Of a DNA stretch of 32,000 bases, positions 8,534-31,003 are shown in pieces. This DNA is from Crocosphaera subtropica ATCC 51142 (GTDB lineage: Bacteria; Cyanobacteriota; Cyanobacteriia; Cyanobacteriales; Microcystaceae), in the NCBI RefSeq assembly GCF_000017845.1, contig NC_010547.1:30001-62000 (forward strand), in the 5' to 3' direction. The notes under the pieces were generated by a model, which searched no databases, was not told the origin of the DNA, and worked only from the letters and a program-made list of their open reading frames with translations. Position numbers and translations under genes: made by a program. Every line of letters begins with the position of its first letter. The first letter of the stretch is position 1.

Positions 8534-8699
8534 ATGACTCCCCAAGACGCAATCAATTGAGACTCAAACCACTAAACCGTTGAATTATCTACAACGAACG
8601 ATCTTGTTAAAAAATTGGGAAGGAAAAAGCTATGGGCAAATTGCTCAAGAAACTGGCTACGATCCAAAATATGTAAAAGATACAGGATATCGTCTATGG
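8534..8699 (+). pseudogene. decayed 5' fragment of a paralogue of the STAND/WD40 gene (HTH region only)
   Basis: nt 8574-8699 align without gaps to nt 3383-3508 with 108/126 identities by hand count ([42 protein letters not shown] vs [42 protein letters not shown]). The ATG 8534 frame hits TGA at codon 9 where the intact gene has TGG. A 5-nt length difference shifts the frame. Similarity stops abruptly after 8699. Confidence 0.85.
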
Positions 8700-8901
8700 A
8701 AACAAGGTTTTTATCCTGCTGCGAGCATATTGTAGCTTTTTTGACGAAGAACTACTTAAAATGTATAAATACACATAATAGAATGTAATATTTCTATTAG
8801 TATTTTTAATATAAGCAGACAAAAGACGGGAAACGTTGACTACATAGGAATTTCAGAAGATTTTCCATTTTACAGCGATCGCCTACATTCTGTACAGAGG
8901 A

Positions 8902-14480: not shown

Positions 14481-14509
14481 GAGTAGTCCATTTGGGCTAC
14501 TCCTTTTTT
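14481..14509 (+). terminator. rho-independent terminator
   Basis: 9-bp stem GAGTAGTCC / GGGCTACTC (one G-U pair), loop ATTT, then C + TTTTTT (14504-14509). It sits 9 nt after the stop of the 366-aa ORF. Confidence 0.7.
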
Positions 14510-14536
14510 AATTCAATCATGAAACGAGGTTTAATT

Positions 14537-16651
14537 ATGGCAAAAAATGTTTTAGTAATCGAGGCGCCAGGAAAACGTAAAAAATTAGAGAAATTTCTAG
14601 GAGCAGACTGGACGGTGATTGCTACAGGTGGGCATATCCGAGAGTTTGATAAGTCAGGAAATCATAATCTTGGGTTTGAGCTAACACCCAAGGGGACGGT
14701 GATACCGAAGTTTGTGCCTCGCTCTGAGCGTAGCAAAAAGGTGATCCGACAATTACAAATGACGGCGAAAAGGACAAACAGTGAAAGAATTTTTATCGCC
14801 ACCGACCCAGACAGAGAAGGAGAGTGCATCGGGTGGCACGCGGCTCAAGTAATGGGAATCAAGAACCCTCAACGTATTGTGTACTCCGAAATTTCAGAGA
14901 AAGCAGTTAGGAGAGCTATCGCTAATCCTCGGTTTCTCGACACCAACCTTGTAGCATCTGCCCTCGGACGTTCCACCTTAGACAAACTGATCGGGTACAC
15001 CGGTTCACCTTTGTTGTGGGATTACGTCGAAGGAGCCAAAAGCATGGGGAGGGTTCAAACTCCGGTCTTAACTCTAATCTGTGAACGGGAAGAAACCATC
15101 CAAAACTTTAAACCAGAGACTTACTATTCTGTATGGAGTTTATATAAAGAGGGTCTCAAAGCGTTTTACGCAGGAGAAAGCAACGACAATTCCGAAGATA
15201 GCGAGGAAGAAAGAGATGATAGCCAAACTCCGAAAGAAACACAAAAAGAGTCCTTGCGGGTAACAAGTGAAGCAGAGGCTAATCGTCTTGTGGCGATCGC
15301 ACGGAACAACTCTCACAACGTCGTCTCCCTCGAAACCAAGAAAAGCAAGAAGTCCCCACCTGCACCGTTTACAACGAGTAACCTACAACAAGCAGCAGGG
15401 GCTAGACTCAAGTTTTCCCCTGACCAAACAATGAAGTTAGCTCAGAAATTGTATGAGGCGGGAGTAATTACCTATCATCGAACTGACTCAACAGTAATCT
15501 CCGGTGATTTCTGCAAAGTCATACGACAATATCTCAAGGCAAATGACCCTGAGAACCTACCTAAGTCAGTGATCAAGCATCGGCAATCTAAGAACGCTCA
15601 AGAAGCTCACGAAGCCATTAGACCTGTAGATTTAGCCAAAACCGAGACAGACATCGCTAGTGAACTAGGAGATGCGGCGGGAAAGCTATACCAACTAATC
15701 TGGTTTAGAACAGTAGCCAGTCAATGTAAGCCCGCCGAGTTAGATAAAACCACCATCACCACCCAGTCTGATACTGTGTTCTGGAAAGCAAAAGGACAAG
15801 TCGTAACCTTCGCTGGCTATCTTCGTTATTGGAGAGACTTAGGGGCGGATTCTGAATTACCCTCAGTAGAGAATCATCAGGTTGTAACGTTAGAAGATGC
15901 TCAGGCTGAAAAGAAGCAAACTAAGCCTCCTTCTCGCTTTACTGAGGCTCAAATGGTAAAGGTGAGGGAAAAGAAAGGAATTGGACGACCTAGCACGTTT
16001 TCACCGACAATCCAAACCCTCAAAGATAGAAACTACGTTGCGGTTGAAAAGCGAATGCTCAAACCAACCCAGGTAGGACTCAAAGTCTACCACTTCGTCA
16101 GAGAGCATTTAACGGAACTAGGGACAGTCGAGTTTACGGCTCAGATGGAGTCCCATCTCGATGCGATCGCCAAAGGTGATGAAAAATGGCAGCCCTATGT
16201 ATGTCAATTTCATTTTGACCATTGGCAACCCACCTTGATCAAGATAGCACAAACCCTAGGAAAGCCAGCCGTTAAATCGTTCAATGGTAATGGCAAATCC
16301 TTAGAAAAATCGAGGACTAAATGCCCAAAATGCAATGTTGCTATGAGTAAGGTTCCATCTAAGTCTAAGAAGTTACATCGACCTTATTTCCTCAAATGTG
16401 AAGACTGCGAAACAGTCATGTTTTACAACAAGGAACGTAAGCAATGGGAATCACCAGGAACCAAATCGCCGACGCAAGAAACTAAGGCAAGTTGTCCAAA
16501 GTGTCAAAAGCCACTGCACTTAAGAGAATATCGCAGTAAGAAAGACGGAAAGCAAAAGAAGTTATTGAAGTGTCTTGACTGCGACGATGTGGTGTTCTTT
16601 GAGTCACGTGGTTGCTTTTGGTCTAAGCAATTTGGAGAAATAAATCTTTAG
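14537..16651 (+). CDS. type IA DNA topoisomerase with two C-terminal zinc ribbons
   Basis: TOPRIM motifs VLVIEAPGK and IATDPDREGE. Active-site Tyr context VITYHRTDS. C-terminal CPKC..x..CEDC and CPKC..x..CLDC. I prefer ATG 14537 (MAKNVLVIEAPGK) to the track's TTG 14492, which lies inside the upstream terminator hairpin. Confidence 0.93.
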   Translation: MAKNVLVIEAPGKRKKLEKFLGADWTVIATGGHIREFDKSGNHNLGFELTPKGTVIPKFVPRSERSKKVIRQLQMTAKRTNSERIFIATDPDREGECIGWHAAQVMGIKNPQRIVYSEISEKAVRRAIANPRFLDTNLVASALGRSTLDKLIGYTGSPLLWDYVEGAKSMGRVQTPVLTLICEREETIQNFKPETYYSVWSLYKEGLKAFYAGESNDNSEDSEEERDDSQTPKETQKESLRVTSEAEANRLVAIARNNSHNVVSLETKKSKKSPPAPFTTSNLQQAAGARLKFSPDQTMKLAQKLYEAGVITYHRTDSTVISGDFCKVIRQYLKANDPENLPKSVIKHRQSKNAQEAHEAIRPVDLAKTETDIASELGDAAGKLYQLIWFRTVASQCKPAELDKTTITTQSDTVFWKAKGQVVTFAGYLRYWRDLGADSELPSVENHQVVTLEDAQAEKKQTKPPSRFTEAQMVKVREKKGIGRPSTFSPTIQTLKDRNYVAVEKRMLKPTQVGLKVYHFVREHLTELGTVEFTAQMESHLDAIAKGDEKWQPYVCQFHFDHWQPTLIKIAQTLGKPAVKSFNGNGKSLEKSRTKCPKCNVAMSKVPSKSKKLHRPYFLKCEDCETVMFYNKERKQWESPGTKSPTQETKASCPKCQKPLHLREYRSKKDGKQKKLLKCLDCDDVVFFESRGCFWSKQFGEINL

Positions 16652-16705: not shown

Positions 16706-16870
16706 GCTAGCGCATTTTAGCAAAAAGTTGTACATAAGGTTTAATAATGTCAACTAAACAACGAACCTTGGTGTTAGCCGATCTCGGTGGATCTTAAAAA
16801 AACAAGCTAGGAATTGATCTAACGAACCTAGACTCACTCTTAGAGACAATTTCTCTTCTCCTTCTTAACC
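16706..16870 (+). repeat. repeat unit A (promoter-like box + 16-codon mini-ORF)
   Basis: GCTAGCGCATTTTAGCAAAAAGTT... The core ~85 nt is ~85 % identical to unit B, and similarity fades over ~170 nt. Mini-ORF 16747-16797 encodes MSTKQRTLVLADLGGS*. Confidence 0.7.
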
Positions 16871-17039: not shown

Positions 17040-17215
17040 GCTAGCGCATTTTAGCAAAAAGTTCTATATGAGGTTTTAAAAATGGCAACAAAACAACAAA
17101 CCTTGGTGTTAGCCGATCCGGACGGGTCTTCAAAAGTATTAGGATTGTGGTGTTTGACTCATAATTAAGACTACATGAGAGAGGGGGCGAAGGAGAAAAC
17201 AGAAAATCTCTCTTC
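17040..17215 (+). repeat. repeat unit B (promoter-like box + 28-codon mini-ORF)
   Basis: Same box 334 nt downstream of unit A. Mini-ORF 17082-17168 encodes MATKQQTLVLADPDGSSKVLGLWCLTHN*. Both units keep a 5-bp hairpin with changed pairs (GATCT/GGATC vs GATCC/GGGTC). Confidence 0.7.
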
Positions 17216-17264: not shown

Positions 17265-18617
17265 TTAAAATGTGTACTGTAAACCTGCTGTTAATTGCCA
17301 ATCTGTTTCTAATTGTGGTCCTTGAAGAGCGCGATAAATGGGTAGTTCAAATTCAATGGCTAAACGACCACTTCTTAAGTCTCCTTCGGGGACAAAAAGA
17401 TTCAGTCCAAAACCAATATCAATTTGAGTTCCTCCCCGTCGAGTGGGATCAGCCGTTGGTACTAAATTAGGATTAAGACGGGAATCTTTGCCACTAATAT
17501 TTCCCCAGTTTTTACCTTTAATTCGTAAAGAAGTGCTGGCCCAATCGCTCCATTTTCTAGCCCCCCAGGCCGTTAACATGATTTCATCTCCAAATTTATA
17601 ACTATTGCTATTTGTCCCTAAACGAAGGGTTCCAATAATCTGACTTCCCCATGACCATTCATCGGTTTGTCCTAAATAAGTGATTCCTGGATGAAGATCG
17701 AGAGTTCCTGATCCGAGTTGCATCGGATAAGGTAACAGTTGATCGGGTCCGGCTGGAGTGCGATCGCGCGCTTCAATCGAACCGGTAGGAAAGCTAACCC
17801 CTGCATTGACATGAATTCTTTGTCGATTTTCGTTCAGAACTTGGTATAAACCGGTGAGTTTAATATCGCCAATGCCTTCAGAATCAGTATTAAAACCTGT
17901 ATTCATACGAGTAATATGATCCATATCCTTGACGACATAAGGCAACATGGCCATCAGGGTCAAATTGTTGGTGATACCATACATCATGCCAAACATATGC
18001 ATTTGCATGGTCATGCGAGTGGGAGTAACGGGATATTGCTCTAAAATTTTTTCATTGCTAATATCATCGACTCCCACGCGACTGCCATCCATTTCCATTA
18101 ACATATAGCGATAAGAAACCATAATTTCCCCTTCACTATGAATATGCTCCCCCATAACAGCAATGGGAGCATGACTATCAGGACGAGCAGGGTTCCAAAA
18201 AATGCCTTGTTGCGAAGGAGGTAACGGCTCGTCCGCTAACAGAAAATTGGTCTTTTCTTTCTCTGGTTTCTCGGAAGAATTGAGGTTACGAAAGTCTGGC
18301 AAGATGTAATCGGTTGAAAATTGATATTTTTGCAAACGATAATCCAGTTTAACTTTTGGATCAGGAATTACGTCCGATAAATTAAACCAATTATCATCAG
18401 AGACAAGCAACTCCCTAGTTTTCTCTTCCTCAATATTTTCTTGTAAGTCTTGATAATCCCAGGTATTAGTAAGGGATTCATAGTCAAAATCAATCTTATC
18501 TTGCTTCTGTTTCCCTGAATTTGTTTCTGCTTGAACAGAATCAAAAAGAGTATTTAGATAGATAAAATTAACTCCTATAAGTAATAAGCACTGTACTTTT
18601 TTCACATCAAAAATCAT
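17265..18617 (-). CDS. outer-membrane beta-barrel protein (transporter / MetA-pathway-like family)
   Basis: 450-aa ORF with a signal-like N-terminus and a C-terminal aromatic beta-signal (..GLQYTF). The segment HAPIAVMGEHIHSEGEIMVSYRYMLMEMDG resembles the family annotated as outer-membrane transporter / MetA-pathway of phenol degradation (from memory). Confidence 0.75.
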   Translation of the reverse strand: MIFDVKKVQCLLLIGVNFIYLNTLFDSVQAETNSGKQKQDKIDFDYESLTNTWDYQDLQENIEEEKTRELLVSDDNWFNLSDVIPDPKVKLDYRLQKYQFSTDYILPDFRNLNSSEKPEKEKTNFLLADEPLPPSQQGIFWNPARPDSHAPIAVMGEHIHSEGEIMVSYRYMLMEMDGSRVGVDDISNEKILEQYPVTPTRMTMQMHMFGMMYGITNNLTLMAMLPYVVKDMDHITRMNTGFNTDSEGIGDIKLTGLYQVLNENRQRIHVNAGVSFPTGSIEARDRTPAGPDQLLPYPMQLGSGTLDLHPGITYLGQTDEWSWGSQIIGTLRLGTNSNSYKFGDEIMLTAWGARKWSDWASTSLRIKGKNWGNISGKDSRLNPNLVPTADPTRRGGTQIDIGFGLNLFVPEGDLRSGRLAIEFELPIYRALQGPQLETDWQLTAGLQYTF

Positions 18618-18700: not shown

Positions 18701-18814
18701 AGGATATAAATGACAAGAAAAGTGCGATCAGAACGAAAAGGCTGAAAATCCCTGTAATCTTTTCACTGACTGAATTATCAGCGATTATCTTATATCAAAC
18801 TCAGGCCAGGAACT

Positions 18815-19498
18815 CTAAGTTGATCTTTTCTTAACCCACAAAAAACTCAATCCTAAGACACTTAAGGCTAAAATTCCTGTGGGTTCTGGCACGGGAGTTG
18901 CCATTAAAGGTTGTCCCAGTTCCTCACCAGCATTAGGATCATTGAGAACTTCGGACCTGGTACGGGTAAAAAAGGCAATATCTAAGTGGGGTCTTGCCCC
19001 TCTTGTAAACCCTTTAGGTAAGTCAAGAAACTCATTATCCCAGTCTGTTAAGTGTACATGGGGACTGGGATCATCATCATCAGGGAATAAGTCAGCCATA
19101 GGATCAGGTGCTGAAAAGAAATTAACCCCTTCTCCCCTTTCTCCACCAATACTAATACCATTGGGTTGATTCCACGCTCCTGTTTGTAAAATTTGCTTCG
19201 TATTAGTATCAAAATTGAAGTTAAACTCGGGAGAGTTGAGATGATTATCGAAGAATTTCTGAAAAATATTCCCATCAGGATCAATAAAAGCAATATCAAA
19301 GGAAGTTAAATCATCTTTTCGGACAATTCCATCTACATCAACTGCGTTTTCATCGTAACTAAAACTTCCTTTCACTTGATAGCCTAAAGTTTGTCCAGTC
19401 CAATGCAAACCAAAGGTAATAGCTTCGGCTGAACCAGCAGAAACTAGACCTAAACTTAAGAAAGTTGCTGCAAACAAACCAATACTTTTTTGCTTCAT
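18815..19498 (-). CDS. PEP-CTERM-anchored secreted protein
   Basis: 227-aa ORF. Signal peptide MKQKSIGLFAATFLSLGLVSAGSAEA. C-terminal PVPEPTGILALSVLGLSFLWVKKR. Confidence 0.85.
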   Translation of the reverse strand: MKQKSIGLFAATFLSLGLVSAGSAEAITFGLHWTGQTLGYQVKGSFSYDENAVDVDGIVRKDDLTSFDIAFIDPDGNIFQKFFDNHLNSPEFNFNFDTNTKQILQTGAWNQPNGISIGGERGEGVNFFSAPDPMADLFPDDDDPSPHVHLTDWDNEFLDLPKGFTRGARPHLDIAFFTRTRSEVLNDPNAGEELGQPLMATPVPEPTGILALSVLGLSFLWVKKRST

Positions 19499-19570
19499 TG
19501 GTCACTTATTCTCTGAAATTATATTATCGGTTGACTCTATGGTTCTAGCAAAATTGTTTCAGTCATTCCA

Positions 19571-19585
19571 CAGACAGATTGTCAA
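19571..19585 (-). promoter_or_regulatory. perfect GACA-GAT-TGTC site (minus strand TTGACAATCTGTCTG)
   Basis: Read directly. It lies 73-87 nt upstream of ATG 19498 and ~60 nt upstream of the riboswitch-leader -10 box on the other strand. Confidence 0.4.
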
Positions 19586-19642
19586 ACTTAAGTATGCCAA
19601 AAAACTTACTCAAGAATAAAAGATTTATTGGCGATGATATGC

Positions 19643-19648
19643 TACAAT
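19643..19648 (+). promoter_or_regulatory. -10 box TACAAT of riboswitch-like leader 1
   Basis: Identical sequence context to 27583-27588. The aptamer P1 strand starts ~10 nt downstream. Confidence 0.45.
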
Positions 19649-19657
19649 GCAAAAAAT

Positions 19658-19899
19658 ATCGGTTCTAGTGGACAGCAGCCACTAGAAGTAATGGGGAAAG
19701 TTCGGTGTAAATCCGTCGCTGTCCCGCAACTGTGATGAGACGTTTCAACTTCTCTTAGGGGTAAAGTTAACGAAGCTAGAAAAAACTGCCATCTAATATT
19801 AGTTGATAATGGTAACGAATTAATGGGCTTTCAAGAACTTGACAATTGGTGATAACGAAGCTATCCGCTTTGCGGATCTGGCGGAGCCAGCGCACTGAT
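19658..19899 (+). ncRNA. cobalamin riboswitch-like element, copy 1 (3' half divergent, no downstream gene)
   Basis: It contains the conserved core GGGAAAGTTCGGTGTAAATCCGTCGCTGTCCCGCAACTGT and the P2 hairpin CTAGTGG/CCACTAG. After 19758 it diverges from copy 2. There are two candidate B12-box-like closures: AGCTAGAAAAAACTGCC (19774-19790), or AGCCAGCGC + ACTGAT (19885-19899). ACTGAT can pair with ATCGGT (19658-19663). Confidence 0.6.
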
Positions 19900-20005
19900 T
19901 CATTCCTTCAAAGAGAAATAGGTTAAAAGCCTTATTCAGTAAAGGTTTTACTTCCAGTTGGCACAAGATCACACCCTCGTTAACTCTACTCCTATATGGA
20001 AATCA

Positions 20006-21517
20006 CTACCAGTTTCTTAAATGTTTTCCGACTCGCAAAGCGTTGGCAATAATGGTTAGGGTGGGATTAACACTCGCACTTGAGGGAAAAAAGCTGCCAT
20101 CAACCACATACAAATTCTCAACATCATGGGTGCGACAATTGAGATCAAGTACAGAAGTCGTCGGATCTTCTCCAAAACAACAGGTTCCGCAATGGTTAGC
20201 CGTAACTTGAACTGGGATTTCGCTACGGGGATAAATACTACTTCTGTTAAACAGAGAATGTTCCAGGGTTTTTTCGACTTGTTTTAACGTGCCGATCCAA
20301 CGATGAACTAAGCGATCATGAGCTTCAATGTTGTTCGGGGTATAATCGATGTACAATTTTTCTCCTTTGAGTCTGACTCGATTATGATGATTGGGTAAGG
20401 TTTCAGTTTGTACCCACCAACCAATAGAACGCTTGGCTAACTGTTCTAGGGCAATATCGGGGACGACTTTGGCTAAAACCGATAAAATAGGCGGAGATTC
20501 AGCAAAAATAAGCTCTTGGAGTAATCCCCCTGTATTTTGGATGTGACCCATGGGATAGGGAAAATCGCCCTCTCCCCAGTAAAAATCATTGAGATAAACA
20601 GTTCTCGGAAATTTGCCAGAATTAGGGGTGGTACTGAGTTGTACAATGGCTGTCATCAGGGGTTGCATCAGATTGCGTCCCACCTGATCAGAACTGTTGG
20701 CAAGTCCATTCGGATGTTTTTCATTAGCAGAACGCAAAAGTAGCGAAGCGGAATTAATTGCACCACAGGCTAAGACGACGACATCAGAAGAAAACAGATA
20801 TTTTTGTCCCTTTATCTCTGTTTCTACTGATTTGACCTGATTTCCTGAAGCATTCGTATGTAAACAAACCACTTTAGCATCGGTTTTGAGGGTAACGTTA
20901 GGAAACCCTAGCACTAGACTAATGCCAAACACTTCTGCGTCTCCTGTGGGATCATCGGTTTGACGGGTTAAGGATAAAGGTAGAGTAGCAGGGTGTAATC
21001 CAAGGGTGGCGATCGCATCGACAATTTCTTGAATCGGGGGTTCATGATTGACCGCAGGATAGGGATAATCGATACTACGGAGAGGATCACTCGGATCTTG
21101 ACCTGATTTTCCGTGAACTTTGTAGAGTTGTTCAGCTTCGGTGTAATAGGGTTCAAAATCTTGGTATTTTAGGGGCCATTCTGGGGAAATTCCGTCTTGG
21201 TGTTGGACGGCTTCAAAGTCTTTTTCCCGCATCCTTAAGAGGGCTGCGCCGTAGATTTTAGTATTGCCACCCACAGCATAATTAGTTTGAGGAGAAAAGG
21301 GTTCTCCTGCATTGTCGTACCATTTTTCGGATGGATGATACCATTCTCTTTTAAAAACATCTACGTCGCTTCTATTTTGGTCTTCTAAGGGCATAAAATT
21401 ACCCCGTTCTAAAATCAATATTTTTTTTCCAGTTGAGGCTAATTTATAGGCTAAAGTTCCGCCACCTGCTCCAGTTCCAATGATAATAATATCATAAGTT
21501 TGATCATCAATAATCAT
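20006..21517 (-). CDS. GMC-family FAD-dependent oxidoreductase
   Basis: 503-aa ORF. N-terminal Rossmann motif DIIIIGTGAGGGTLAYKLA..ILILERG. The C-terminal region is typical of choline/glucose dehydrogenase-like enzymes (..LYVVDGSFFPSS..NPTLTI). Confidence 0.85.
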   Translation of the reverse strand: MIIDDQTYDIIIIGTGAGGGTLAYKLASTGKKILILERGNFMPLEDQNRSDVDVFKREWYHPSEKWYDNAGEPFSPQTNYAVGGNTKIYGAALLRMREKDFEAVQHQDGISPEWPLKYQDFEPYYTEAEQLYKVHGKSGQDPSDPLRSIDYPYPAVNHEPPIQEIVDAIATLGLHPATLPLSLTRQTDDPTGDAEVFGISLVLGFPNVTLKTDAKVVCLHTNASGNQVKSVETEIKGQKYLFSSDVVVLACGAINSASLLLRSANEKHPNGLANSSDQVGRNLMQPLMTAIVQLSTTPNSGKFPRTVYLNDFYWGEGDFPYPMGHIQNTGGLLQELIFAESPPILSVLAKVVPDIALEQLAKRSIGWWVQTETLPNHHNRVRLKGEKLYIDYTPNNIEAHDRLVHRWIGTLKQVEKTLEHSLFNRSSIYPRSEIPVQVTANHCGTCCFGEDPTTSVLDLNCRTHDVENLYVVDGSFFPSSASVNPTLTIIANALRVGKHLRNW

Positions 21518-21570
21518 AATGAATTCTACCTTTACGAGATTATTTATACTGAGTCAACGCTCGTTGAACT

Positions 21571-22185
21571 CTACTGCCAAAGATAAAGCAGGACAAATAA
21601 GATAATCCAAATAACATCAACAAAATGCCAAAATAAGGAAGTTGCCATAATCCCAAAATGCCCTGTATCATAATTACCTGGAATAAAAGAACGACCTAAC
21701 ATAATGCCTTGCAAAAGAATCCCTGTAAAAACGTGCAAACCGTGAAATCCTGTTAATAAATAAAACATTCCCTCAAAGACACCAGAAGTAAAGCCAAATT
21801 TTAACCCATGCCATTCAATGCCTTGACCAACTAAAAAGTAAGTTCCCATTGCCATAGTCACTAATAAAAACAATCGAAAACCCCATAATTTATGACGTTC
21901 CAAAAATTGCTCAGCAACATAAATAACAAAACTGCTAGACACTAAAATTACTGTATTAATGGCAGGTTCTTTAATTTCTAATCCTGATACTCCAGTAGGC
22001 AACCAGTCAACGGTCGTTGTTTTATAGATAATATACCCTGCAAAAAAACTCAGAAAAATGATACTTTCTGATAACAAAAACACAATAAAACCAAACATAC
22101 TATTAGCTTGTTCATCATGTTCATGTTCTTGACTAAGATGATGCTCTAAATGGTCTAACTTCTCTGAGGTTAAAGAACTATCCAT
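21571..22185 (-). CDS. ctaE: heme-copper oxidase subunit III
   Basis: 204-aa polytopic ORF with FGFIVFLLSESIIFLSFF and FWHFVDVIWIILF motifs. It lies directly downstream of subunit I. Confidence 0.9.
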   Translation of the reverse strand: MDSSLTSEKLDHLEHHLSQEHEHDEQANSMFGFIVFLLSESIIFLSFFAGYIIYKTTTVDWLPTGVSGLEIKEPAINTVILVSSSFVIYVAEQFLERHKLWGFRLFLLVTMAMGTYFLVGQGIEWHGLKFGFTSGVFEGMFYLLTGFHGLHVFTGILLQGIMLGRSFIPGNYDTGHFGIMATSLFWHFVDVIWIILFVLLYLWQ

Positions 22186-22204
22186 AATTCAATTTTTCTC
22201 CTAA

Positions 22205-23893
22205 TTATTCAGATTTAACATGACCATTTGCAGTCAACGGTTCAGATTTTCCATAACCATAGGGTTCGGAAATAACAAGAGGAATTTCCTCAAAATTCTC
22301 AATATCTGGGGGGGAAGTGGTTAACCATTCCAAACCAATAGCCCGCCAAGGATTATCCCCTGCTGCTTGACCTTGTATCCAAGAACTAACCATATTTAAA
22401 ATGAAGGGTAAGGTAGACATTCCTAACAAAAAGCCCCCTAAACTTGCTATCACATTCCAAAAGGTATATTGAGGATCATAGGAAGACACACGACGCAACA
22501 TTCCTTGTAACCCCAAGGGGTGCATCGGTAAAAAATTGAGATTGGTTCCAATAAAAGCTAACCAAAAATGTAACTGACCTAAGCCTTCATAATACATACG
22601 TCCTGTCATCTTGGGGAACCAATGATAAAGGGCGGCATACATCCCCATCGTCACCGTTCCATACAAAACATAGTGAAAATGACCCACCACAAAATAGGTA
22701 TTATTAACATGAATATCTATCGGAACTGCAGACAACATAATGCCTGTAATACCCGCAAAGACAAACATAATTAATGCCCCCAACGCAAACAACATGGGAG
22801 TATTCAAACGCAGTTTACCGCCCCAAATTGTCCCAACCCAAGCAAATACTTTAATCCCTGTGGGAACGGAAACACACATGGTAGACAACATAAACACCAT
22901 GCGCATCCATCCTGGTGTCCCACTCGCATACATATGATGCACCCAAACTAACCCACTCACCCCCGCAATAATTAAAGAAGAAATTGCCACAACTTTGTAA
23001 CCAAACAGAGGTTTACGGGAATAAACAGGAAATATTTCCGAAAAAATGCCAAAGATGGGCAAAATAATCACATAGACAGCAGGATGAGAATAAAACCAGA
23101 AAAAGTGCTGAAATAAAACCGCATTCCCTCCCTTTGCAGGGTCAAAAAAGCTGGTTCCAACCGTTAAATCAAATAACAGCATCACGGCGCCGGCAGTTAA
23201 GGCAGGGAGTCCAAACAATTGAATAATCTGTGCGCTGAAGACTGTCCACACAAAGGCCGGCATTCGGAAAAAGGTCATGCCTGGGGCCCGCATTTTGACG
23301 ATAGTGGTGACAAAATTAACCGCCCCCATAATAGAAGATACACCCGATATGGCAACGGCTAAAATCCACAAAAATTGTCCACTAATTAAGTCTCCAGAGG
23401 GGTTTTGCAGACTCACAGGGGGATAAGACCACCATCCCGCTTGGGCCGAACCACTGGGGACAAAAAAGCTGGCCATTACCAAAATACCCACCACTGGAAC
23501 CATCCAAAAAGCGGCGGCATTGAGACGGGGAAAGGCCATATCTCGCGCCCCTATCATCAAGGGAACTAAATAATTAGCTAACCCGACTAAAGAGGGAAAT
23601 GTCCACAAAAACAGCATAATGGTGCCGTGCATGGTAAACATTCCATTGTAAAAAGTGCGGTCTACTAAATCAGATTCAGGGGTAATTAATTCTCCCCGAA
23701 TAATCATGGCGAAAATACCTCCTACTAAGAAGAAAAAGAAGGAAGTAACAAGGTATTGAATACCAATGACTTTATGATCGGTACTAAAACTAAAATATCG
23801 CTTCCAATCTCTTGCTGATGCTTGATGATGGTGTTCTATGTGAGTTTCGATCACTATTTTTTCCTGGGAATTATTATTATTAATTGTGGTCAT
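22205..23893 (-). CDS. ctaD: heme-copper oxidase subunit I
   Basis: Motifs FWFYSHPAVY, VHHMYASG and GHFHYVL. I prefer the ATG at 23893 (MTTINNN), which has AGGAGA 9 nt upstream, over the track start 23929. Confidence 0.92.
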   Translation of the reverse strand: MTTINNNNSQEKIVIETHIEHHHQASARDWKRYFSFSTDHKVIGIQYLVTSFFFFLVGGIFAMIIRGELITPESDLVDRTFYNGMFTMHGTIMLFLWTFPSLVGLANYLVPLMIGARDMAFPRLNAAAFWMVPVVGILVMASFFVPSGSAQAGWWSYPPVSLQNPSGDLISGQFLWILAVAISGVSSIMGAVNFVTTIVKMRAPGMTFFRMPAFVWTVFSAQIIQLFGLPALTAGAVMLLFDLTVGTSFFDPAKGGNAVLFQHFFWFYSHPAVYVIILPIFGIFSEIFPVYSRKPLFGYKVVAISSLIIAGVSGLVWVHHMYASGTPGWMRMVFMLSTMCVSVPTGIKVFAWVGTIWGGKLRLNTPMLFALGALIMFVFAGITGIMLSAVPIDIHVNNTYFVVGHFHYVLYGTVTMGMYAALYHWFPKMTGRMYYEGLGQLHFWLAFIGTNLNFLPMHPLGLQGMLRRVSSYDPQYTFWNVIASLGGFLLGMSTLPFILNMVSSWIQGQAAGDNPWRAIGLEWLTTSPPDIENFEEIPLVISEPYGYGKSEPLTANGHVKSE

Positions 23894-23936
23894 TAGTTGT
23901 TGTCTCCTAAGTGCTTGATATGGGAACAAACGACCT

Positions 23937-24818
23937 TTACTGATAATTCACGAGAGGCGGTTGGGCAGGTTTAATAGATGGCCAACCTGTTTTAATCATT
24001 TTTTGAGATTGTTGATTGTATTCAGAAAAAGCTTGATTATCGGCTAAAAAAGGGGTTTGTTTAGCTGCTTTTTTTAACCATGTTTCATAATCTTCTTTTG
24101 ATTGCACCACCACATTAGCGGTCATGGTGGCAAAATAAGTTCCACTAAATTGAGAGTCGGTTAATTGATAGTTTCCTTGACGAATGGGGGTAAATTCTAA
24201 CGCAATAGTTTCCTGGGGAATCATATCTTGTTTGACCCGAAAGGCAGGAATATAAAAACCGTGGAGAACATCTTGCGATCGCAATGCTAAATGCACTCTT
24301 TGATCAATGGGCAAATGTAATTCTGTACTGGTAATATTGCTCTCAGGATAATGAAAAATCCAAGCCCATTGTTTGGCAATGACTTCTATGGTTTCAAAAG
24401 GTTTATCGACTGTTTTAACAGTTTCTATATCTATCGATTGATGGGAGTGATGATGACCGCCTTGAATGCCCATTTGCTGATAAATTTGGTAGCTATATCC
24501 TGCAATCCAAAAAACTAATAAGATAGGAATAACTGTCCAAATAATTTCTAAGGTAACATTGCCTTCAATAGCCGGTCCGTCACTCCAATCATATTTAGCT
24601 ACTCGATTAAACATCACAAAATAAATGACAACTCCCGTTACACCGAGAAAAATAAATGACCCCAAACTTACCAAAAAGGTAAATAAATTATCAATTAAAA
24701 TGGCTTCTGTTGTTCCTTGGGGTGGCAACCAACCATAAGATAATTGTCCTATCCAAAGACTAATCAAACTTAAGGCGATCGCCGTTATCATTAGTAGCAA
24801 AATTCGTCGTTTTTTCAT
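23937..24818 (-). CDS. ctaC: oxidase subunit II lacking the CuA ligands (ARTO / quinol-oxidase-like)
   Basis: 293-aa ORF with two N-terminal TM helices and a cupredoxin-like DVLHGFYIPAFRVKQD. Where CuA subunits have C-x-E-x-C-G-x2-H-x2-M, this protein reads LTDSQFSGTYFATM (24123-24164). Confidence 0.85.
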   Translation of the reverse strand: MKKRRILLLMITAIALSLISLWIGQLSYGWLPPQGTTEAILIDNLFTFLVSLGSFIFLGVTGVVIYFVMFNRVAKYDWSDGPAIEGNVTLEIIWTVIPILLVFWIAGYSYQIYQQMGIQGGHHHSHQSIDIETVKTVDKPFETIEVIAKQWAWIFHYPESNITSTELHLPIDQRVHLALRSQDVLHGFYIPAFRVKQDMIPQETIALEFTPIRQGNYQLTDSQFSGTYFATMTANVVVQSKEDYETWLKKAAKQTPFLADNQAFSEYNQQSQKMIKTGWPSIKPAQPPLVNYQ

Positions 24819-24859
24819 GTAGCCTCTAAGATGTAGTTCTGCTATTGGGATATTGAAAG

Positions 24860-25465
24860 TTATTGAAGTAAGAAATTTGCCTGTTTTCCTAATTTCAATA
24901 AACCCGTAGCCGTATTATGAACCCCAAATTCAGCCGCTAATTGGGCGCCTAGTGTTCCGTGTAAAAACATTAAAAACAGAATGAAAACTCCTGTTAATAA
25001 ATAACTCCACTGCACTTGTATAGCTTCATCATTGCGCCACAAATAGCGTTGAAATCCTCGCCATACAGTCATTCCAATGATTAAACCTAAGAGAAAAACA
25101 CCCCCTACTCCATGCCATAACATGGTTTCCATTCCCTGCAAACCCCAAGCACTTTTTATTCCAGGAATGGGTTCAGCTAACATAATTTCATAGAACCCTG
25201 CTGCAACTGTAAACAAAGTAATAATTGCTGAGGCCAGCATATTGTACCAACCTACATCAAAAAAATTAGACCGAGTAGCCCGAATTGCTAACAGTTTGAA
25301 GATAGGTTTTTCTAAGGGAAAGAAAACGCCAACGAAATCAAAACCAATGGCAATAATAAACAACCCTAATGTGAGATGAACTAGGTTAGGATGAATGGGA
25401 ATGGGATAGGGAAGTCCATTTGCTCCTAGATGAGATTTAACTTGATTAATTAAGTCAGGATTCAT
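24860..25465 (-). CDS. DUF2231-like membrane protein with conserved His residues
   Basis: 201-aa ORF with ~5 TM helices. HP..VH motif (IHPNLVHLTLGLF) plus His in later helices (LWHG, FLHG). Its ATG overlaps the stop of the upstream paralogue (ATGA at 25462-25465). Confidence 0.7.
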   Translation of the reverse strand: MNPDLINQVKSHLGANGLPYPIPIHPNLVHLTLGLFIIAIGFDFVGVFFPLEKPIFKLLAIRATRSNFFDVGWYNMLASAIITLFTVAAGFYEIMLAEPIPGIKSAWGLQGMETMLWHGVGGVFLLGLIIGMTVWRGFQRYLWRNDEAIQVQWSYLLTGVFILFLMFLHGTLGAQLAAEFGVHNTATGLLKLGKQANFLLQ

Positions 25466-25962
25466 TGTAAAATTCCCTCTTTAACTGCTTCAACAATGGG
25501 AACTGTATGGAGTCCATATACCCAAACTAATTCATCACCAAGATAAACTTGAAAACTAACTAAAATCACTAAAATTAATGCCATTCCTAAATAGGCAATA
25601 GGTAATTTGTGTGAACTGCGTAACCGAATCACATAACGCCACCCTGTAAGAGTAGCAATAACCCCTGAAAGCGACCATCCTATTAGGGTGTGTAAATTTA
25701 AAACAGGTTTAACAGCAGCATAAGGTTGGGCTAAACCTGCTTCATATTGTCCAAAAACAATGGCAATAAAAATTGCAATGGTAGCAAAAAACATATTCCA
25801 CCAACTTACTTCATATAAACGAATATTACGGCTAAAATACCCGATAATGTCGCAAATAAAAGCAAATATTACCATTGCAATCACAAAATGGACAACGATA
25901 GGATGAATTGTATCAGGATAGGGTAAATTGTGATCGTTTAAAAGAAGAAAATAGGTAATCAT
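25462..25962 (-). CDS. DUF2231-like membrane protein, paralogue of the next gene
   Basis: 166-aa ORF with ~4 TM helices. Same N-terminal signature as its neighbour (NLPYPDTIHPIVVHFVIAMVIF vs GLPYPIPIHPNLVHLTLGLFII). Confidence 0.7.
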   Translation of the reverse strand: MITYFLLLNDHNLPYPDTIHPIVVHFVIAMVIFAFICDIIGYFSRNIRLYEVSWWNMFFATIAIFIAIVFGQYEAGLAQPYAAVKPVLNLHTLIGWSLSGVIATLTGWRYVIRLRSSHKLPIAYLGMALILVILVSFQVYLGDELVWVYGLHTVPIVEAVKEGILQ

Positions 25963-26080
25963 TCTACATTTTTGGACACAATCAAATAACCTGAACGAAG
26001 ATTCTTTTCACTCCCTTAATTTAGTCAAATATATGTAATCAATCAGTATCATTTAATACTAATTAACTCACTAATTTAGA

Positions 26081-26210
26081 TTGACAACCTGTCTTATTTA
26101 AAGTCTTAAAATTTGACAGTTTGTCTTACTTAAAATTTGACAGTTCGTCATAGTTCAGGAAGATATCTATCAAGAAGATGTCTTCATATTTGACAATAGG
26201 TCTTTTGACT
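26081..26210. promoter_or_regulatory. array of TTGACA-N3/4-TGTCTT (GACA-N3-TGTC) sites in a divergent intergenic region
   Basis: TTGACAACCTGTCTTA (26081-26096), TTGACAGTTTGTCTTA (26113-26128), TTGACAGTTCGTCATA (26137-26152) and TTGACAATAGGTCTTT (26190-26205). Extra half-sites are GTCTTA 26103, TGTCTT 26179, TTGACT 26205 and an inverted TTGTCAAAT at 26245-26253. Confidence 0.5.
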
Positions 26211-26280
26211 AACCTCAATGATTCTGCCAGAATCTCCAAGAAAGTTGTCAAATCATTATTGATTGTGGGAGTGACTAAAC

Positions 26281-27387
26281 GTGAATTTGAATTTCAATCG
26301 TACAGACTTTTCAGTAGGTGATACACCTCTATCTATTGCGTCAGGAAACTTTAACGATGATATTAATTTAGATTTAGTGGTCGTTAATTTAGAGAGCGAT
26401 AATATCTCAGTATTGTTAGGAGATGGAACAGGAGATTTTAGCGACCGTACCGATATCACTGTAGGAGAAGATCCGACATTTGTTGCAGTGGGAGATGTCA
26501 ATAATGATGGGATATTGGATCTAGCAGTTGCTAGTAATGCCAATAATAATGTTTCTATCCTTTTAGGAGATGGACTGGGGAATTTTTCTCTTCCCACTAA
26601 CTTTTCTGTGGGAAGTAGCCCTGTTCCCTTGACCGTTGGAGATTTTAATAATGACACTAATCTCGATCTCGCTGTGGTTAATTTTGAGGGAGATGATGTC
26701 TCAGTCTTACTTGGAGACGGTACTGGTAATTTCACCCTTAATCCTAATAATTTTTTAGTTGGAGACGGGCCTTTTTCAGTAGCAACCGGCCTTTTTGATA
26801 ATGATAATTTCTTAGATTTGGCAGTAGCTAACGCTTTCAGTGATGACGTTTCTATCTTGTTAGGAGACGGCATTGGTAACTTTGGTTCCCCCAACAATTT
26901 TGTTGTGGGGGATAGACCAGATGCTATCTCAGTGGGAGACTTTAATAGTGATGGTCAATTAGATTTAGCAGTTGGTAATGCTGATGATAACGATGTCTCT
27001 ATTTTGTTTGGAGATGGGTTGGGAAGTTTTGGCAACCGCACAGATTTTCCAGTAGGACTTTTACCCCCTTCTGTCGCAGTGGGAGACTTAAATAAGGATG
27101 GAAATCAAGATTTTGCAGTGGCCAACTTTCTCAGTAACAATGTTTCATTACTTTTAGGAGATGGACTAGGGAACTTTAGTAATCCTCGTAACTTGGATGT
27201 TGGTGATGCAGCCAGAGCCGTAGTGATTGGCGATTTCAACAACGATAATAGAGAAGATTTAGCGGTTGCTAATTTCAACAGCGATAATATCTCAGTTTTA
27301 GTTGCTACCCCTACCCCTGAACCTACCGCTCTTTTAGGATTCATTCTGCTAGGTTTATTAGGAATAAGCGCAAGATTGAGAAGATGA
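26281..27387 (+). CDS. FG-GAP/VCBS-type seven-repeat propeller with PEP-CTERM signal, no N-terminal signal peptide
   Basis: 368-aa ORF from GTG. Seven ~50-aa repeats (VGDFN.D..LDLAV.N...[DN].[VI]S[VIL]LLGDG.G.F). C-terminal TPTPEPTALLGFILLGLLGISARLRR. An in-frame stop at 26272-26274 excludes an upstream extension. Confidence 0.8.
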   Translation: MNLNFNRTDFSVGDTPLSIASGNFNDDINLDLVVVNLESDNISVLLGDGTGDFSDRTDITVGEDPTFVAVGDVNNDGILDLAVASNANNNVSILLGDGLGNFSLPTNFSVGSSPVPLTVGDFNNDTNLDLAVVNFEGDDVSVLLGDGTGNFTLNPNNFLVGDGPFSVATGLFDNDNFLDLAVANAFSDDVSILLGDGIGNFGSPNNFVVGDRPDAISVGDFNSDGQLDLAVGNADDNDVSILFGDGLGSFGNRTDFPVGLLPPSVAVGDLNKDGNQDFAVANFLSNNVSLLLGDGLGNFSNPRNLDVGDAARAVVIGDFNNDNREDLAVANFNSDNISVLVATPTPEPTALLGFILLGLLGISARLRR

Positions 27388-27582
27388 TAGACTATTTATA
27401 GGGTTTCAGGGATCTCATGCAAAAGATAGTCTTAGGCCAGTATCATTCTTAGATCAAGCTACATTCACGGATTTTTGTGGCGATCCCATTAGATTTTCGC
27501 AATCGCCGTTTAATAGTATATAAATTCTACATCCAGTACCGAATAATTTACAGGTGGAAAAGATTTATTGACGATGATATGC

Positions 27583-27588
27583 TACAAT
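27583..27588 (+). promoter_or_regulatory. -10 box TACAAT of the metE-operon riboswitch leader
   Basis: It lies ~10 nt upstream of the aptamer P1 strand, in a context duplicated at 19643. Confidence 0.45.
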
Positions 27589-27597
27589 GCAAAAAAT

Positions 27598-27715
27598 ATC
27601 GGTTCTAGTGGAGATCAGCCATTAGAGGTAACGGGGAAAGTTCGGTGTAAATCCGTCGCTGTCCCGCAACTGTGATGAGACGTTTCAACTTCTCTTAGTC
27701 AGAATGCCCGCCGGT
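27598..27715 (+). ncRNA. cobalamin (B12) riboswitch aptamer
   Basis: P1 is ATCGGT (27598-27603) / GCCGGT (27710-27715). Core GGGAAAGTTCGGTGTAAATCCGTCGCTGTCCCGCAACTGT. B12 box AGTCAGAATGCCCGCC (27697-27712). It is upstream of metE, the classic B12-repressed gene. Confidence 0.85.
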
Positions 27716-27881
27716 TAATTAATCCACGTTCATAATCATCTGCGAGGTACGGATTGTGGTCAATACGATTTTTCTGAGGAAGTATTATCCTCAAAAGCTT
27801 TTTACTCAAAAGATCCACATAGATTCTCTATGGAAGTCTCGCCCAAATCTATGGGATTTGTTCGCAACGATGACTTAGAAA

Positions 27882-28469
27882 ATGAAACAAGAATCTATTT
27901 CTAAGGCATTTTCTTGGGAGTCTGCTTGGAAAACCGTTTCTCAAGGGAGTTTTTGGCAATTTAGCCTAATTTTTGTAGGTTATGTTAGTAGCTTAGTTTA
28001 TCCCCATGCACCTTTAGTCGGGTTTTCTGCCGTAGCGGGTAACACGTTAACGCGCAAGAAAGCCTTAACCTGTGTCATGGCGATTTGGTTAGCGAATCAA
28101 CTCTATGGCTTTATTATTCGCCAATATCCTCAAACTTGGGAATCTTTTACCTGGGGCATCGTGATGGGACTGGGAACATTGTTCGTCACGGGGTTAGTTA
28201 CCCTAAGACCAACCTTTTGTCAGCGTTTCTGGGGACATTGCTTGTGGTTAGTCATAAGCGTTATCGGTGGCTATCTTCTATATCAAGGCGCAATTATTGT
28301 ATTTGCCCAGTTAATGGGAGGACACAGCCTAACTTTAGCGATTTTATGGCGAATTTTCCTCAAAAATTGTCTCTGGGGTATAGGTTTATCTCTTATTCAT
28401 GGTTGCGTTGTTGGTGCGATGATGCAATTTTTCCCCCAATATTCGTCCCAGTCAGCAGATAAGGTTTAA
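27882..28469 (+). CDS. polytopic membrane protein of unknown function (5-6 TM) under the B12 riboswitch
   Basis: 195-aa ORF with hydrophobic segments at about aa 24-40, 61-79, 89-108, 119-144 and 150-184. Five Cys residues lie in or near TM helices. It is the first ORF after the riboswitch and is co-directional with metE, 155 nt downstream. Confidence 0.7.
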   Translation: MKQESISKAFSWESAWKTVSQGSFWQFSLIFVGYVSSLVYPHAPLVGFSAVAGNTLTRKKALTCVMAIWLANQLYGFIIRQYPQTWESFTWGIVMGLGTLFVTGLVTLRPTFCQRFWGHCLWLVISVIGGYLLYQGAIIVFAQLMGGHSLTLAILWRIFLKNCLWGIGLSLIHGCVVGAMMQFFPQYSSQSADKV

Positions 28470-28624
28470 GGTTAATTCTCATAATCTGGGATTTAAAGCC
28501 TAAATCTGTCCTTTTTAAATTCATTTCACTTATCCCACTGACTTGTTCTGCAAGTGAGACAGAGTTTTTATGTCTTAATTTTTTGCAATGCCAAGTTTCA
28601 TATTCATTTGTTTTGAGGAAAAAT

Positions 28625-30889
28625 ATGTCAATTATTACTGCAACCCTTGGTTATCCTCGTATTGGAAAGCGTCGCGAAGTTAAGAAAGCTTTAGAGTCGT
28701 TTTGGCGCAATGAATTACCCTCTGAAGAATTATTACAAATTGTTCAAGAGGTAGAAGAAGCCAGTTGGACAAAACAAGCGGAGACGGGAATCGAACAGAT
28801 AGGAATAGGTGATGCAACCCTTTATGACCAAATATTAGACTGGTCGGTGCGTTTAGGCTTAATTCCTGCCCGTTTTCAACAATTTAGTGGTAAAGAGCGT
28901 TATTTCGCTATGGCACGGGGTAAAGATGGGGTTCCTGCCTTAGAAATGACCAAATGGTTTGATACGAATTATCATTATCTTGTGCCTGAAATTACGGCAG
29001 ATATTACCCCTATCGCTGATTTTAGCGATTTTATTACCGTTGTTAAGCGAAGCATCACCCATTTAGGGAAAAAAGCGGTTCCTATCATTATCAGTCCCCT
29101 TACCTTATTACAGTTGAGTCGTTTGGAGGGAGTGGTATTTGAGGACATTCTCAACCAATTATTACCCTTATACTGTGAATTATTGAAGGAATTAAAAGCA
29201 TTAGGGGTTAAAACTGTACAAATTCATGACCCCATCTTAGTTTTAAGCAATGCTTCTCACCTTAAAGCCCATTTTCAAAAGGTTTATACAGAATTCGGAC
29301 AAACAGGACTGAATATTCATCTTGTCACCTATTTCGATGATTTAGGTGATACTTACCCTTGGGTGATGGAATTACCAGTAAACACGATTAGTTTGGATTT
29401 TACACGGGGAAATAACCTAGAATTGCTCCAAAAATACGGATTTCCCTCCGATAAAATTTTAGGAGCCGGGGTGATCGACGGTCGCAATATTTGGTGTATT
29501 CGTCCACAAACTGTCATTTCTTTACTGGAAACCATTCAAACAGTCACCAATAACCTACTGATTCAACCTTCCTCATCTTTACAATTTGTTCCTTACGATG
29601 CGGCCCTAGAGGTTAAATTACCCGAACCCTTGCATAATGTGTTGAGTTTTGCTGAACAAAAATTAGAGGAAGTGGTCATTTCAGGGAAAACCTTAACAGG
29701 AGAAAATACGCAAACAGAACTGGCGTTAATTGAACAAAAATGGGATGAATTTGCTCAATTTAGTCCAGTGAATCAAGAAATTAAAACAAAGCTAGAAAAT
29801 TTAACTCCTGGCGACTTCCAACGTTCTTTATCCTACACTTCACGCATTGCTCAACAAATTTCTCTTCCTACCCTACCTACCACAACCATTGGTTCCTTTC
29901 CCCAAACCTCAGAAGTCCGTAAACTGCGATCGCAGTATAAACGAGGTGATATTAGCCCAGAAGACTATCAGAAAGCAATGGAGGCGGAAATTGCCAAATG
30001 TATTAAGATTCAGGAAGAAATCGGCTTAGATGTCCTAGTACACGGGGAATTTGAACGGACAGATATGGTGGAATATTTTGGGCAACAGTTAGACGGTTTC
30101 GCCTTTACCCAACAGGGATGGGTACAAAGTTACGGCAGTCGTTATGTGCGTCCTCCCATTATTTTCGGCGATGTGGTGCGAACTGCACCGATGACTGTCC
30201 AAGAATACCAATTTGCTCAATCTTTGACCGAAAAACCCGTCAAAGGAATGTTAACTGGCCCAGTCACCATTCTTAACTGGTCTTTCCCTCGTAGCGATAT
30301 TTCTCGTCAAGAACAAGCCTATCAAATTGCGATCGCTATACAAGAAGAAGTCACAGACTTAGAAAAAGCGGGTGCAAAAATGATTCAAGTGGATGAACCT
30401 GCATTTCGGGAAGGTTTACCCTTAAAACAGGAAAAATGGTCTGATTATCTTTCCTGGGCTGTGGATGCCTTTCGTTTAGCCACTGCCAGTGTACAACCCC
30501 AAACCCAAATTCACACCCATATGTGTTATTCCGAGTTTGGCGACATTATCCAAGACATTGAACGCTTAGACGCAGACGTGATTTCCATTGAAAACAGTCG
30601 TAGCAATAATCGTACCTTAGAAGAAGTCGCCGAAGGAGGCTATTCTCATCAAATTGGTAATGGAGTTTATGATATCCATTCCCCCGTTATCCCAACCGTA
30701 GAACAGTTAACCCAACAATTAAAAACCGGAATTTCTACTCTTCCCTTAGAACAAATTTGGGTCAACCCTGATTGTGGGTTAAAAACCAGACGTTGGGAGG
30801 AAGTGATTCCTTCATTGAAAAATATGGTCGAAGCAACCCGAAAAGTCCGAGAAGAGATTGATTTATCGACCCATCATCAAAATTTATAA
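28625..30889 (+). CDS. metE: cobalamin-independent methionine synthase
   Basis: N-terminus MSIITATLGYPRIGKRREVKKALE and C-terminal Zn-site region (..HTHMCYSEFGDII.., ..WVNPDCGLKTR..). I prefer ATG 28625, with GAGGA upstream, over the track start 28583. Confidence 0.93.
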   Translation: MSIITATLGYPRIGKRREVKKALESFWRNELPSEELLQIVQEVEEASWTKQAETGIEQIGIGDATLYDQILDWSVRLGLIPARFQQFSGKERYFAMARGKDGVPALEMTKWFDTNYHYLVPEITADITPIADFSDFITVVKRSITHLGKKAVPIIISPLTLLQLSRLEGVVFEDILNQLLPLYCELLKELKALGVKTVQIHDPILVLSNASHLKAHFQKVYTEFGQTGLNIHLVTYFDDLGDTYPWVMELPVNTISLDFTRGNNLELLQKYGFPSDKILGAGVIDGRNIWCIRPQTVISLLETIQTVTNNLLIQPSSSLQFVPYDAALEVKLPEPLHNVLSFAEQKLEEVVISGKTLTGENTQTELALIEQKWDEFAQFSPVNQEIKTKLENLTPGDFQRSLSYTSRIAQQISLPTLPTTTIGSFPQTSEVRKLRSQYKRGDISPEDYQKAMEAEIAKCIKIQEEIGLDVLVHGEFERTDMVEYFGQQLDGFAFTQQGWVQSYGSRYVRPPIIFGDVVRTAPMTVQEYQFAQSLTEKPVKGMLTGPVTILNWSFPRSDISRQEQAYQIAIAIQEEVTDLEKAGAKMIQVDEPAFREGLPLKQEKWSDYLSWAVDAFRLATASVQPQTQIHTHMCYSEFGDIIQDIERLDADVISIENSRSNNRTLEEVAEGGYSHQIGNGVYDIHSPVIPTVEQLTQQLKTGISTLPLEQIWVNPDCGLKTRRWEEVIPSLKNMVEATRKVREEIDLSTHHQNL

Positions 30890-31003
30890 CCTGTTACTCC
30901 CTTTCACCCAATCAAGCAAAAGCCCAATTCTTATAAGCGGAATGTTAGGATTAAGTCAACAACGCAAATACCAAAAATAACTTGTTGATAAGTGAGGAGA
31001 AAA

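Follow-up and report, generated by a model that had tools for sequence, protein, structure and literature searches.

The gene-less metE riboswitch leader beside the cta-GMC operon of Crocosphaera subtropica ATCC 51142 is very probably a scar of a 7.8-kb insertion

RESULTS

A partial copy of the metE riboswitch lies 7.8 kb from the complete one

The window analyzed here, a stretch of 32,000 nucleotides of Crocosphaera subtropica ATCC 51142 DNA, carries the beginning of a metE cobalamin riboswitch twice. We consider it very probable that the left copy (copy A) is the severed 5' part of this riboswitch, that it has kept the native promoter and upstream flank and is blind to B12, and that it was left behind as a scar when a 7.8-kb block was inserted. 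Copy A lacks the parts that sense B12 and is therefore read as the scar of a rearrangement rather than as a new regulator.

Copies A (19618-19758) and B (27558-27698), both on the plus strand, form a direct repeat of 141 nt, reported by the repeat finder at 96% identity. A scripted count finds six differences (95.7% identity), at copy A positions 19631, 19673, 19675, 19682, 19687, and 19692; the final 66 nt of the repeat contain no mismatch, and the similarity breaks off sharply beyond both repeat ends. The near-identical copy of the metE leader, 96% over 141 nt, noted in the preliminary description is thus real. Copy A comprises the metE promoter region and the 5' part of a cobalamin aptamer and ends in CTCTTAG. 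Copy B is the 5' part of the working metE riboswitch, whose complete aptamer (27583-27729, plus strand; 47.7 bits against a cut-off of 31.5) is the one Rfam cobalamin match above the cut-off in the window. Its B12 box, AGTCAGAATGCCCGCC, lies at 27697-27712. Farther downstream, a terminator-like hairpin (27775-27793) with a T-rich tail (27775-27803 in all, plus strand), weak by energy and absent from copy A, is likely the expression platform. The intact riboswitch precedes orf195 (27882-28469, plus strand; 195 aa, no Pfam match) and metE (28583-30889, plus strand; Pfam Meth_synt_1 and Meth_synt_2).

On both sides, copy A is flanked by minus-strand genes, as previously described: a 227-aa gene (18815-19498), the homologues of which are named PEP-CTERM sorting-domain proteins by their sources, and a GMC-family oxidoreductase gene (20006-21517). 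Beyond the GMC gene lie ctaE, ctaD, ctaC, and two DUF2231 genes, all on the minus strand. The plus-strand leader ends 247 nt from the GMC stop in convergent orientation, so that transcripts extending past copy A would enter the 3' end of the GMC gene in antisense.

Copy A is a truncated aptamer

Copy A was scored with the Rfam Cobalamin model (RF00174; 189 positions, curated cut-off 31.5 bits) both with and without the sequence that follows it. Cut at the repeat end (19450-19758 scored), 19643-19758 yields 37.6 bits as a 3'-truncated match to model positions 1-108 of 189, and the same shared 5' stretch of copy B alone yields 35.7 bits. Given its real 3' sequence, in a sensitive Rfam scan of 19450-20100, copy A drops to 27.1 bits (19643-19807). 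The real 3' sequence therefore costs copy A about 10 bits and adds 12 bits to copy B (35.7 to 47.7). The covariance-model scan that the preliminary description had proposed as a check thus leaves full-length copy A, at 27.1 bits, under the 31.5-bit cut-off. The same scan returned only noise, with E values above 5, for other Rfam families in 19450-20100.

Copy A keeps the P1 5' strand, P2, the P3 5' strand, P4, P5, and the P6 hairpin and breaks off inside P6. Model positions 109-189, with the B12 box and the strands that complete P3 and P1 on the 3' side, are missing from it, as is an expression platform. In the best alignment of copy A, five of the eight inner P1 pairs, one of the four outer P1 pairs, and one of the three P3 pairs are broken, and the posterior probabilities past 19758 are low. 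In all seven intact riboswitches aligned (copy B, BG0011, four metagenome-derived Crocosphaera relatives, and Hydrococcus), CTCT(T/C)AG is directly followed by the box AGTCAGAATGCCCRCC, an AGYCMGgAgaCCkGCc-type element 3' of P6; copy A has GGGTAAAGTTAACGAAGC there. The only match to the B12 box within three mismatches in the window is the one at 27697. A partner for the P1 5' strand was sought in 19759-20100, and none better than chance was found: the best pairing reaches -5.2 kcal/mol, shuffled sequences average -7.15, and 282 of the 300 shuffles pair equally well or better. The fold of the whole 310-nt RNA has a z score of -1.13.

We also considered a hidden 3' half, with 19759-19900 forming a large P6 insert and the aptamer resuming at, for example, GAGCCAGCGCACUGA (~19883). 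This possibility was rejected: cmscan produced no such alignment, and the missing P1 partner and the absence of a B12-box match within three mismatches count against it as well. What cmscan can align is a B12-box-like GAAGCUAGAAAAAACUGCC at 19773-19791, 20 nt beyond the break, with low posteriors and a drop in score. Because of this alignment, a degenerate ligand pocket in copy A is conceivable from the sequence alone. In cobalamin riboswitches, the walls of the ligand pocket are formed by the B12 box together with the junction that follows P6. Judged by the parts that it retains, copy A is predicted to be unable to form this pocket and not to sense B12; it would be blind to B12 because it has neither the pocket nor a platform. 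The preliminary description spoke of a promoter-plus-aptamer core. The promoter part of that description rests on a conserved extended -10 element, and "aptamer core" was an overstatement for a match that covers positions 1-108 of the 189 in the model.

Both changes private to copy A sit in the P2 loop, which reads GAGATCAG in copy B and five relatives, reads GAAATCAG in one other (L127), and is different in Hydrococcus. These changes are compatible with relaxed constraint and are too few to judge it.

Relatives carry the empty site

The closest genome found is that of Cyanothece sp. BG0011, with a GMC oxidoreductase that is 98% identical and a homologue of the 227-aa gene that is 89% identical to those of the window. 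In BG0011, the 227-aa gene is divergent from orf195-metE, and the two are separated by a single 443-bp intergenic region, which aligns as window positions 19499-19758 joined directly to 27699-27881. In a blastn comparison with the respective BG0011 contig (L085), window positions 18806-19758 map to 8693-7741 and positions 27558-32000 map to 7881-3439; the two contig ranges overlap by exactly 141 nt. A second relative (L092), more distant than BG0011 (227-aa gene 84% identical, orf195 88% identical), shows no interruption of this arrangement either and shares the upstream flank. In a third (L127), a flank of the copy A type, starting from 19589, adjoins an intact riboswitch, and the upstream gene is cobW. 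Thus, in all three relatives, the left flank of copy A runs into one intact riboswitch and then orf195. The region 19499-19617, collinear with L085 and L092 and shared with the divergent PEP-CTERM gene, is the native upstream flank of the metE riboswitch.

Conversely, the upstream flank of copy B was found in no relative, and the orphan copy was found in no other genome recovered. No match to 19759-20005 was detected in 80 species-representative GMC loci from other genomes, and no cobalamin match lies beside GMC in the Crocosphaera relatives. Because the empty site of the relatives equals the left flank, one copy of the repeat, and the right flank, the comparison identifies 19759-27557 as an apparent insertion into the metE riboswitch, with a copy of the duplicated 141 nt on either side. 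The empty site in BG0011, L092, and L127 bears out what had been offered earlier as the alternative to a regulator, a dead duplicate that a rearrangement left behind.

The repeat could also be a chimeric join made by the assembler, given that short-read contigs of the same strain break inside it. However, independent contigs from Logan read assemblies of this strain (k = 31) span both novel junctions. One (L001) extends from the GMC gene past the left junction (19758/19759) and reaches 19729; another (L129) extends from the FG-GAP gene past the right junction (27557/27558) and reaches 27601; and a third (L003) extends from the PEP-CTERM gene to 19661. Each of the three ends exactly 30 nt beyond the last copy-specific base, where k-mers become shared, as expected at a true repeat. 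The contigs also show the bases that distinguish the two copies, with G at 19631 on the PEP-CTERM side and A at 27571 on the FG-GAP side. Since independent read assemblies cross both junctions, the repeat is not misassembled, and the probability of an assembly artefact is practically nil.

The order of events is inferred from parsimony over the three relatives, which favors an insertion in this strain over a deletion elsewhere. Loss of the block in the relatives by recombination between the repeats would be less parsimonious. A crossover within the identical last 66 nt would yield exactly the BG0011 arrangement and fits the pattern of bases, but two or three independent precise losses would be required.

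metE loci of other relatives

Several observations concern the metE loci of related cyanobacteria. In the distantly related Hydrococcus rivularis NIES-593 (L044, 7574-7721), orf195 is missing, and one strand carries, in a row, ctaCDE, GMC, a cobalamin riboswitch (61.4 bits), and metE. This arrangement was considered as a possible ancestral linkage between cta-GMC and the metE riboswitch and was rejected: the orientation is opposite, and the closer Crocosphaera relatives have no such linkage. The adjacency of GMC and the metE riboswitch in Hydrococcus is treated as coincidental or undecided.

In at least two Crocosphaera relatives (L092, 1143-2113; L127, 1802-2489), nearly all of metE has been deleted, and its last 100-230 nt are left; both keep the riboswitch and orf195, followed by a gene of 315-318 aa. 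About 60 homologues of orf195 were found in Chroococcales and Pleurocapsales, and orf195 may be the conserved first gene under this B12 switch. Another locus (L096, 5753-10078) encodes a 190-aa orf195 homologue without an upstream riboswitch, and a LysR-family gene is divergent from metE, which suggests that metE is controlled there by a protein rather than by an RNA.

The putatively inserted block and its transposon-like end

The inserted block (19759-27557), absent from this site in relatives, contains an element with terminal inverted repeats (TIRs); the GMC, ctaE, ctaD, ctaC, and two DUF2231 genes (minus strand); an FG-GAP gene (plus strand); and a 170-bp spacer. Its cta-GMC part (20011-26354) has a 97% identical counterpart on a different BG0011 contig (L005), where an ISAs1-type transposase follows the GMC gene and the FG-GAP gene is reduced to its first 25 codons. 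The cta-GMC neighborhood is clearly unstable.

At the left end of the block lies a 239-bp element (19756-19994) with 18-nt TIRs, TAGGGGTAAAGTTAACGA (19756-19773) and TCGTTAACTCTACTCCTA (19977-19994), which are complementary at 16 of 18 positions and stand 203 nt apart. Two matches to the terminal repeat occurred in none of 100 shuffles of the window. There is a TA at each end, if TA is taken to be the target duplication, and TAACGAA-type subterminal repeats are present inside. This noncoding element looks like a MITE, that is, a small nonautonomous transposable element. Its left end coincides with the left insertion junction, where the riboswitch identity ends, which suggests that a transposon end took part in making this junction.

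Neither a second copy of the TIR element (searched for in the window, 129 loci, a plasmid collection, and a metagenome scan) nor a related transposase (searched for in the same loci, plasmids, and metagenomes) was found. The metagenome scan returned 26 matches, which share only the terminal 18-28 nt with the element. On nine of the metagenome contigs (L103, L108, L110, L114, L115, L118-L120, and L122; JGI Ga0209780, Ga0209363, and Ga0049094), a repeated element starts with the same 18-20 nt as the TIR of the window (TAGGrGTAGAGTTAACGAAC). Its interior is unlike that of the window element and is conserved among the nine (…GGCCAATTrTTGGTGGGGCCAAATGCATTGTGGCCCACCC…). The nine may represent a related transposon-end family from another organism. 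A search with the FG-GAP protein for a donor-like arrangement was swamped by repeat proteins.

Compared to Crocosphaera sp. Alani8 (L007, 419-6559), the cta-GMC block (20012-26157) is inverted relative to the FG-GAP gene. Alani8 also carries a second copy of the cta-GMC block at 87-88% identity (L008), and upstream of its cta genes there is what we take, from a reading of unscanned sequence, to be the tail of a transposase gene. Upstream of the cta operon in the window, 26080-26150 contains repeated TTGACA(G/A)-N-TGTCTTA units (aaatttgacagtttgtcttac and aaatttgacagttcgtcat) that are also present in L007 and look like operator sites for a regulator. A simple inversion as the origin of the arrangement around copy A was rejected, because an inversion cannot create a direct duplication and BG0011 shares the orientation of the window.

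The window contains other repeats as well. A stretch of ~95 nt is duplicated at 16706-16800 and 17040-17135 (spacing of 334-335 nt, 84-88% identity) in the intergenic region between the open reading frames (ORFs) at 14492-16651 and 17265-18617. Two copies of a 138-nt sequence, 84% identical, lie at 3372-3509, at the start of a 1,189-aa ORF, and 5.2 kb downstream at 8563-8700. The 1,189-aa ORF also contains, at 5060-6744, at least eight units with a period of 126 nt, which we presume to be WD40-type repeats.

A proposed history of the duplication

These observations can be assembled into the following scenario. The ancestor would have resembled BG0011 today, with the PEP-CTERM gene and riboswitch-orf195-metE divergent from one intergenic region. 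In the lineage of this strain, the 7.8-kb block would have entered the riboswitch after aptamer position ~108, and the first 141 nt of the leader would have been duplicated on either side of the block. The right copy (copy B) would continue into the B12 box, P1, the terminator, orf195, and metE and remain a working switch. The left copy (copy A) would be the native left half, now running into transposon-like DNA. Copy A would most likely give rise to an unregulated transcript consisting of 100 nt of misfolded aptamer, then the TIR element, and then antisense sequence to the 3' end of GMC; such a transcript would be a by-product of the rearrangement.

Two routes to the duplication are possible. 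One is the fill-in of a 141-nt staggered break, which fits the direct repeats. The other is recombination with DNA of another background, anchored in the riboswitch and possibly involving the TIR end. Three of the four copy B differences (27622 T, 27627 G, and 27632 C) match the states in L094 and Hydrococcus, not those in BG0011. Recombination with a foreign background would explain these three bases, whereas a simple in-place duplication does not predict bases that copy B shares with L094 and Hydrococcus.

A further base of copy B deserves mention. A G-to-A change at 27571, compared to copy A and BG0011, creates TTGACG, which a consensus scan pairs with AAAAAT 18 nt downstream (27568-27597). 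This change might compensate for the lost native upstream context, but transcription from that site would begin within P1.

The promoter of copy A and read-through toward the GMC gene

An extended -10 element, TGCTACAAT, is located at 19640-19648 on the plus strand (consensus TGnTAnnnT), with its columns conserved in the alignment: the T-TG-TA---T columns are invariant in all eight aligned sequences, Hydrococcus included. A simple sigma-70 scan at copy A found no -35/-10 pair, and the promoter call rests on the extended -10. From this element, we infer that transcription starts near 19655. Because the -10 element is intact and all of the upstream DNA is native, the promoter of copy A is probably still active.

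Terminator prediction on the plus strand returned nothing up to the GMC gene or just past its edge. The weak hairpin at ~19926-19949 that had been pointed out earlier does exist (-6.7 to -8.2 kcal/mol, z = -0.59); however, neither it nor two small GC hairpins at 19862-19889 fold better than shuffles. The convergent geometry toward the GMC and cta genes, with no convincing terminator in between, is thus as originally described. Likewise, no plus-strand gene follows the leader, the only ORFs there being TTG-start ORFs of at most 26 aa. The earlier statement that the longest following ORF has 8 codons holds for ATG starts but not when TTG starts are allowed, which add ORFs of 26 aa (19846-19926) and 20 aa (19958-20020); neither of the two looks like a gene. 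To our knowledge, cyanobacteria lack Rho. Given this and the absence of a predicted terminator, read-through is plausible, and unregulated antisense transcription into the 3' end of GMC is possible.

On the minus strand, the consensus of a terminator-like site is matched at 19663-19687, where the P2 hairpin of copy A is followed by CCGATATTTT. The site, which comprises the P2 hairpin and the A-run of the P1 5' strand, has a 9-bp stem (-12.7 kcal/mol, z = -4.28) and is the best terminator-like site in the region. It falls between the cta-GMC operon, which it follows, and the PEP-CTERM gene, which it precedes.

Could copy A be functional? The proposal of B12-dependent antisense or small-RNA control, put forward in the preliminary description, is not supported, given the truncated aptamer, the absence of the B12 box, of the P1 and P3 3' strands, and of a platform, and the absence of the arrangement in the relatives recovered. 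In its explicit form, copy A would be a working B12 riboswitch in which the ligand terminates an antisense RNA against GMC and cta. The convergence with GMC, the intact promoter element, and the lack of an ORF behind the leader speak for it, and there is a precedent in Listeria, AspocR (PMC8079631). Nevertheless, with an aptamer that ends at position 108 of 189, a score below the cut-off once the real 3' sequence is included, no B12 box and no P1 and P3 3' strands, no terminator to switch, an arrangement present in no relative, and an obvious origin as an insertion scar, we regard this possibility as extremely unlikely.

An RNA that ignores B12 might still have been exapted: transcripts made from the orphan metE promoter, either constitutively or under whichever control acts on it, could measurably lower the expression of GMC and cta, by transcriptional interference or pairing. 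The promoter and the entire native upstream region are intact, and the lack of both Rho and a predicted plus-strand terminator before GMC makes read-through plausible. However, the arrangement occurs in one strain only, so that there is no conservation by which to gauge selection, and it is the 3' end of the operon's last gene that the RNA would overlap, a place where effects tend to be minor. We deem such an effect unlikely. A broader version, in which the orphan promoter and aptamer stub have been co-opted as a B12-blind antisense unit damping the 3' end of cta-GMC and the reverse complement of P2 serves as the terminator of the operon, appears quite unlikely. The cta-GMC operon would then have been placed beside the orphan promoter by the same rearrangement, and the scar would be a regulatory element observed very soon after it arose.

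DISCUSSION

The reading of copy A as the severed, B12-blind remnant of an insertion serves mainly as a warning: a riboswitch leader that is duplicated almost without change but has no gene behind it mimics an antisense regulator of the AspocR type. Two cheap checks expose the fragment, namely, scoring it with and without its real 3' sequence and looking for the empty site in a sister genome. The rearrangement also provides a natural experiment: foreign DNA now lies 25 nt upstream of the -10 element of the working metE switch, and the original context of the metE promoter points into a respiratory oxidase operon, so the pair of copies could show how much upstream context the metE promoter needs.

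AspocR and Rli55 of Listeria and EutX of Enterococcus are riboswitch-controlled noncoding or antisense RNAs with complete aptamers and a ligand-dependent terminator. Copy A resembles them in being a leader derived from a cobalamin riboswitch that has no ORF and converges with a neighboring gene, but it has neither a complete aptamer nor a ligand-dependent terminator and is a strain-specific scar. In the case of AspocR, B12 binding to the riboswitch terminates the transcript early, which yields 230-nt rather than 1,400-nt forms (PMC8079631).

The closest likeness within RF00174 is to the riboswitch that controls metE: copy A and the opening 141 nt of the metE leader in the same genome share 95.7% identity, and P2, P4, P5, and the P6 hairpin are intact. 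Copy A differs in having no positions 109-189, no platform, and no regulated gene and is accordingly a fragment of the family, not a member. The 239-bp element resembles cyanobacterial MITEs in its 18-nt TIRs, TA ends, and subterminal TAACGAA repeats, and it differs from them in that a single copy was seen within the sequences searched. Finally, like the relics found at rearrangement breakpoints, copies A and B are direct repeats around a block that is missing in relatives, each keeping one native flank, although their 141 nt far exceed the target-site duplication made by a transposase. Copy A is thus of an already known type, a fragment of a known riboswitch family produced by an ordinary kind of event.
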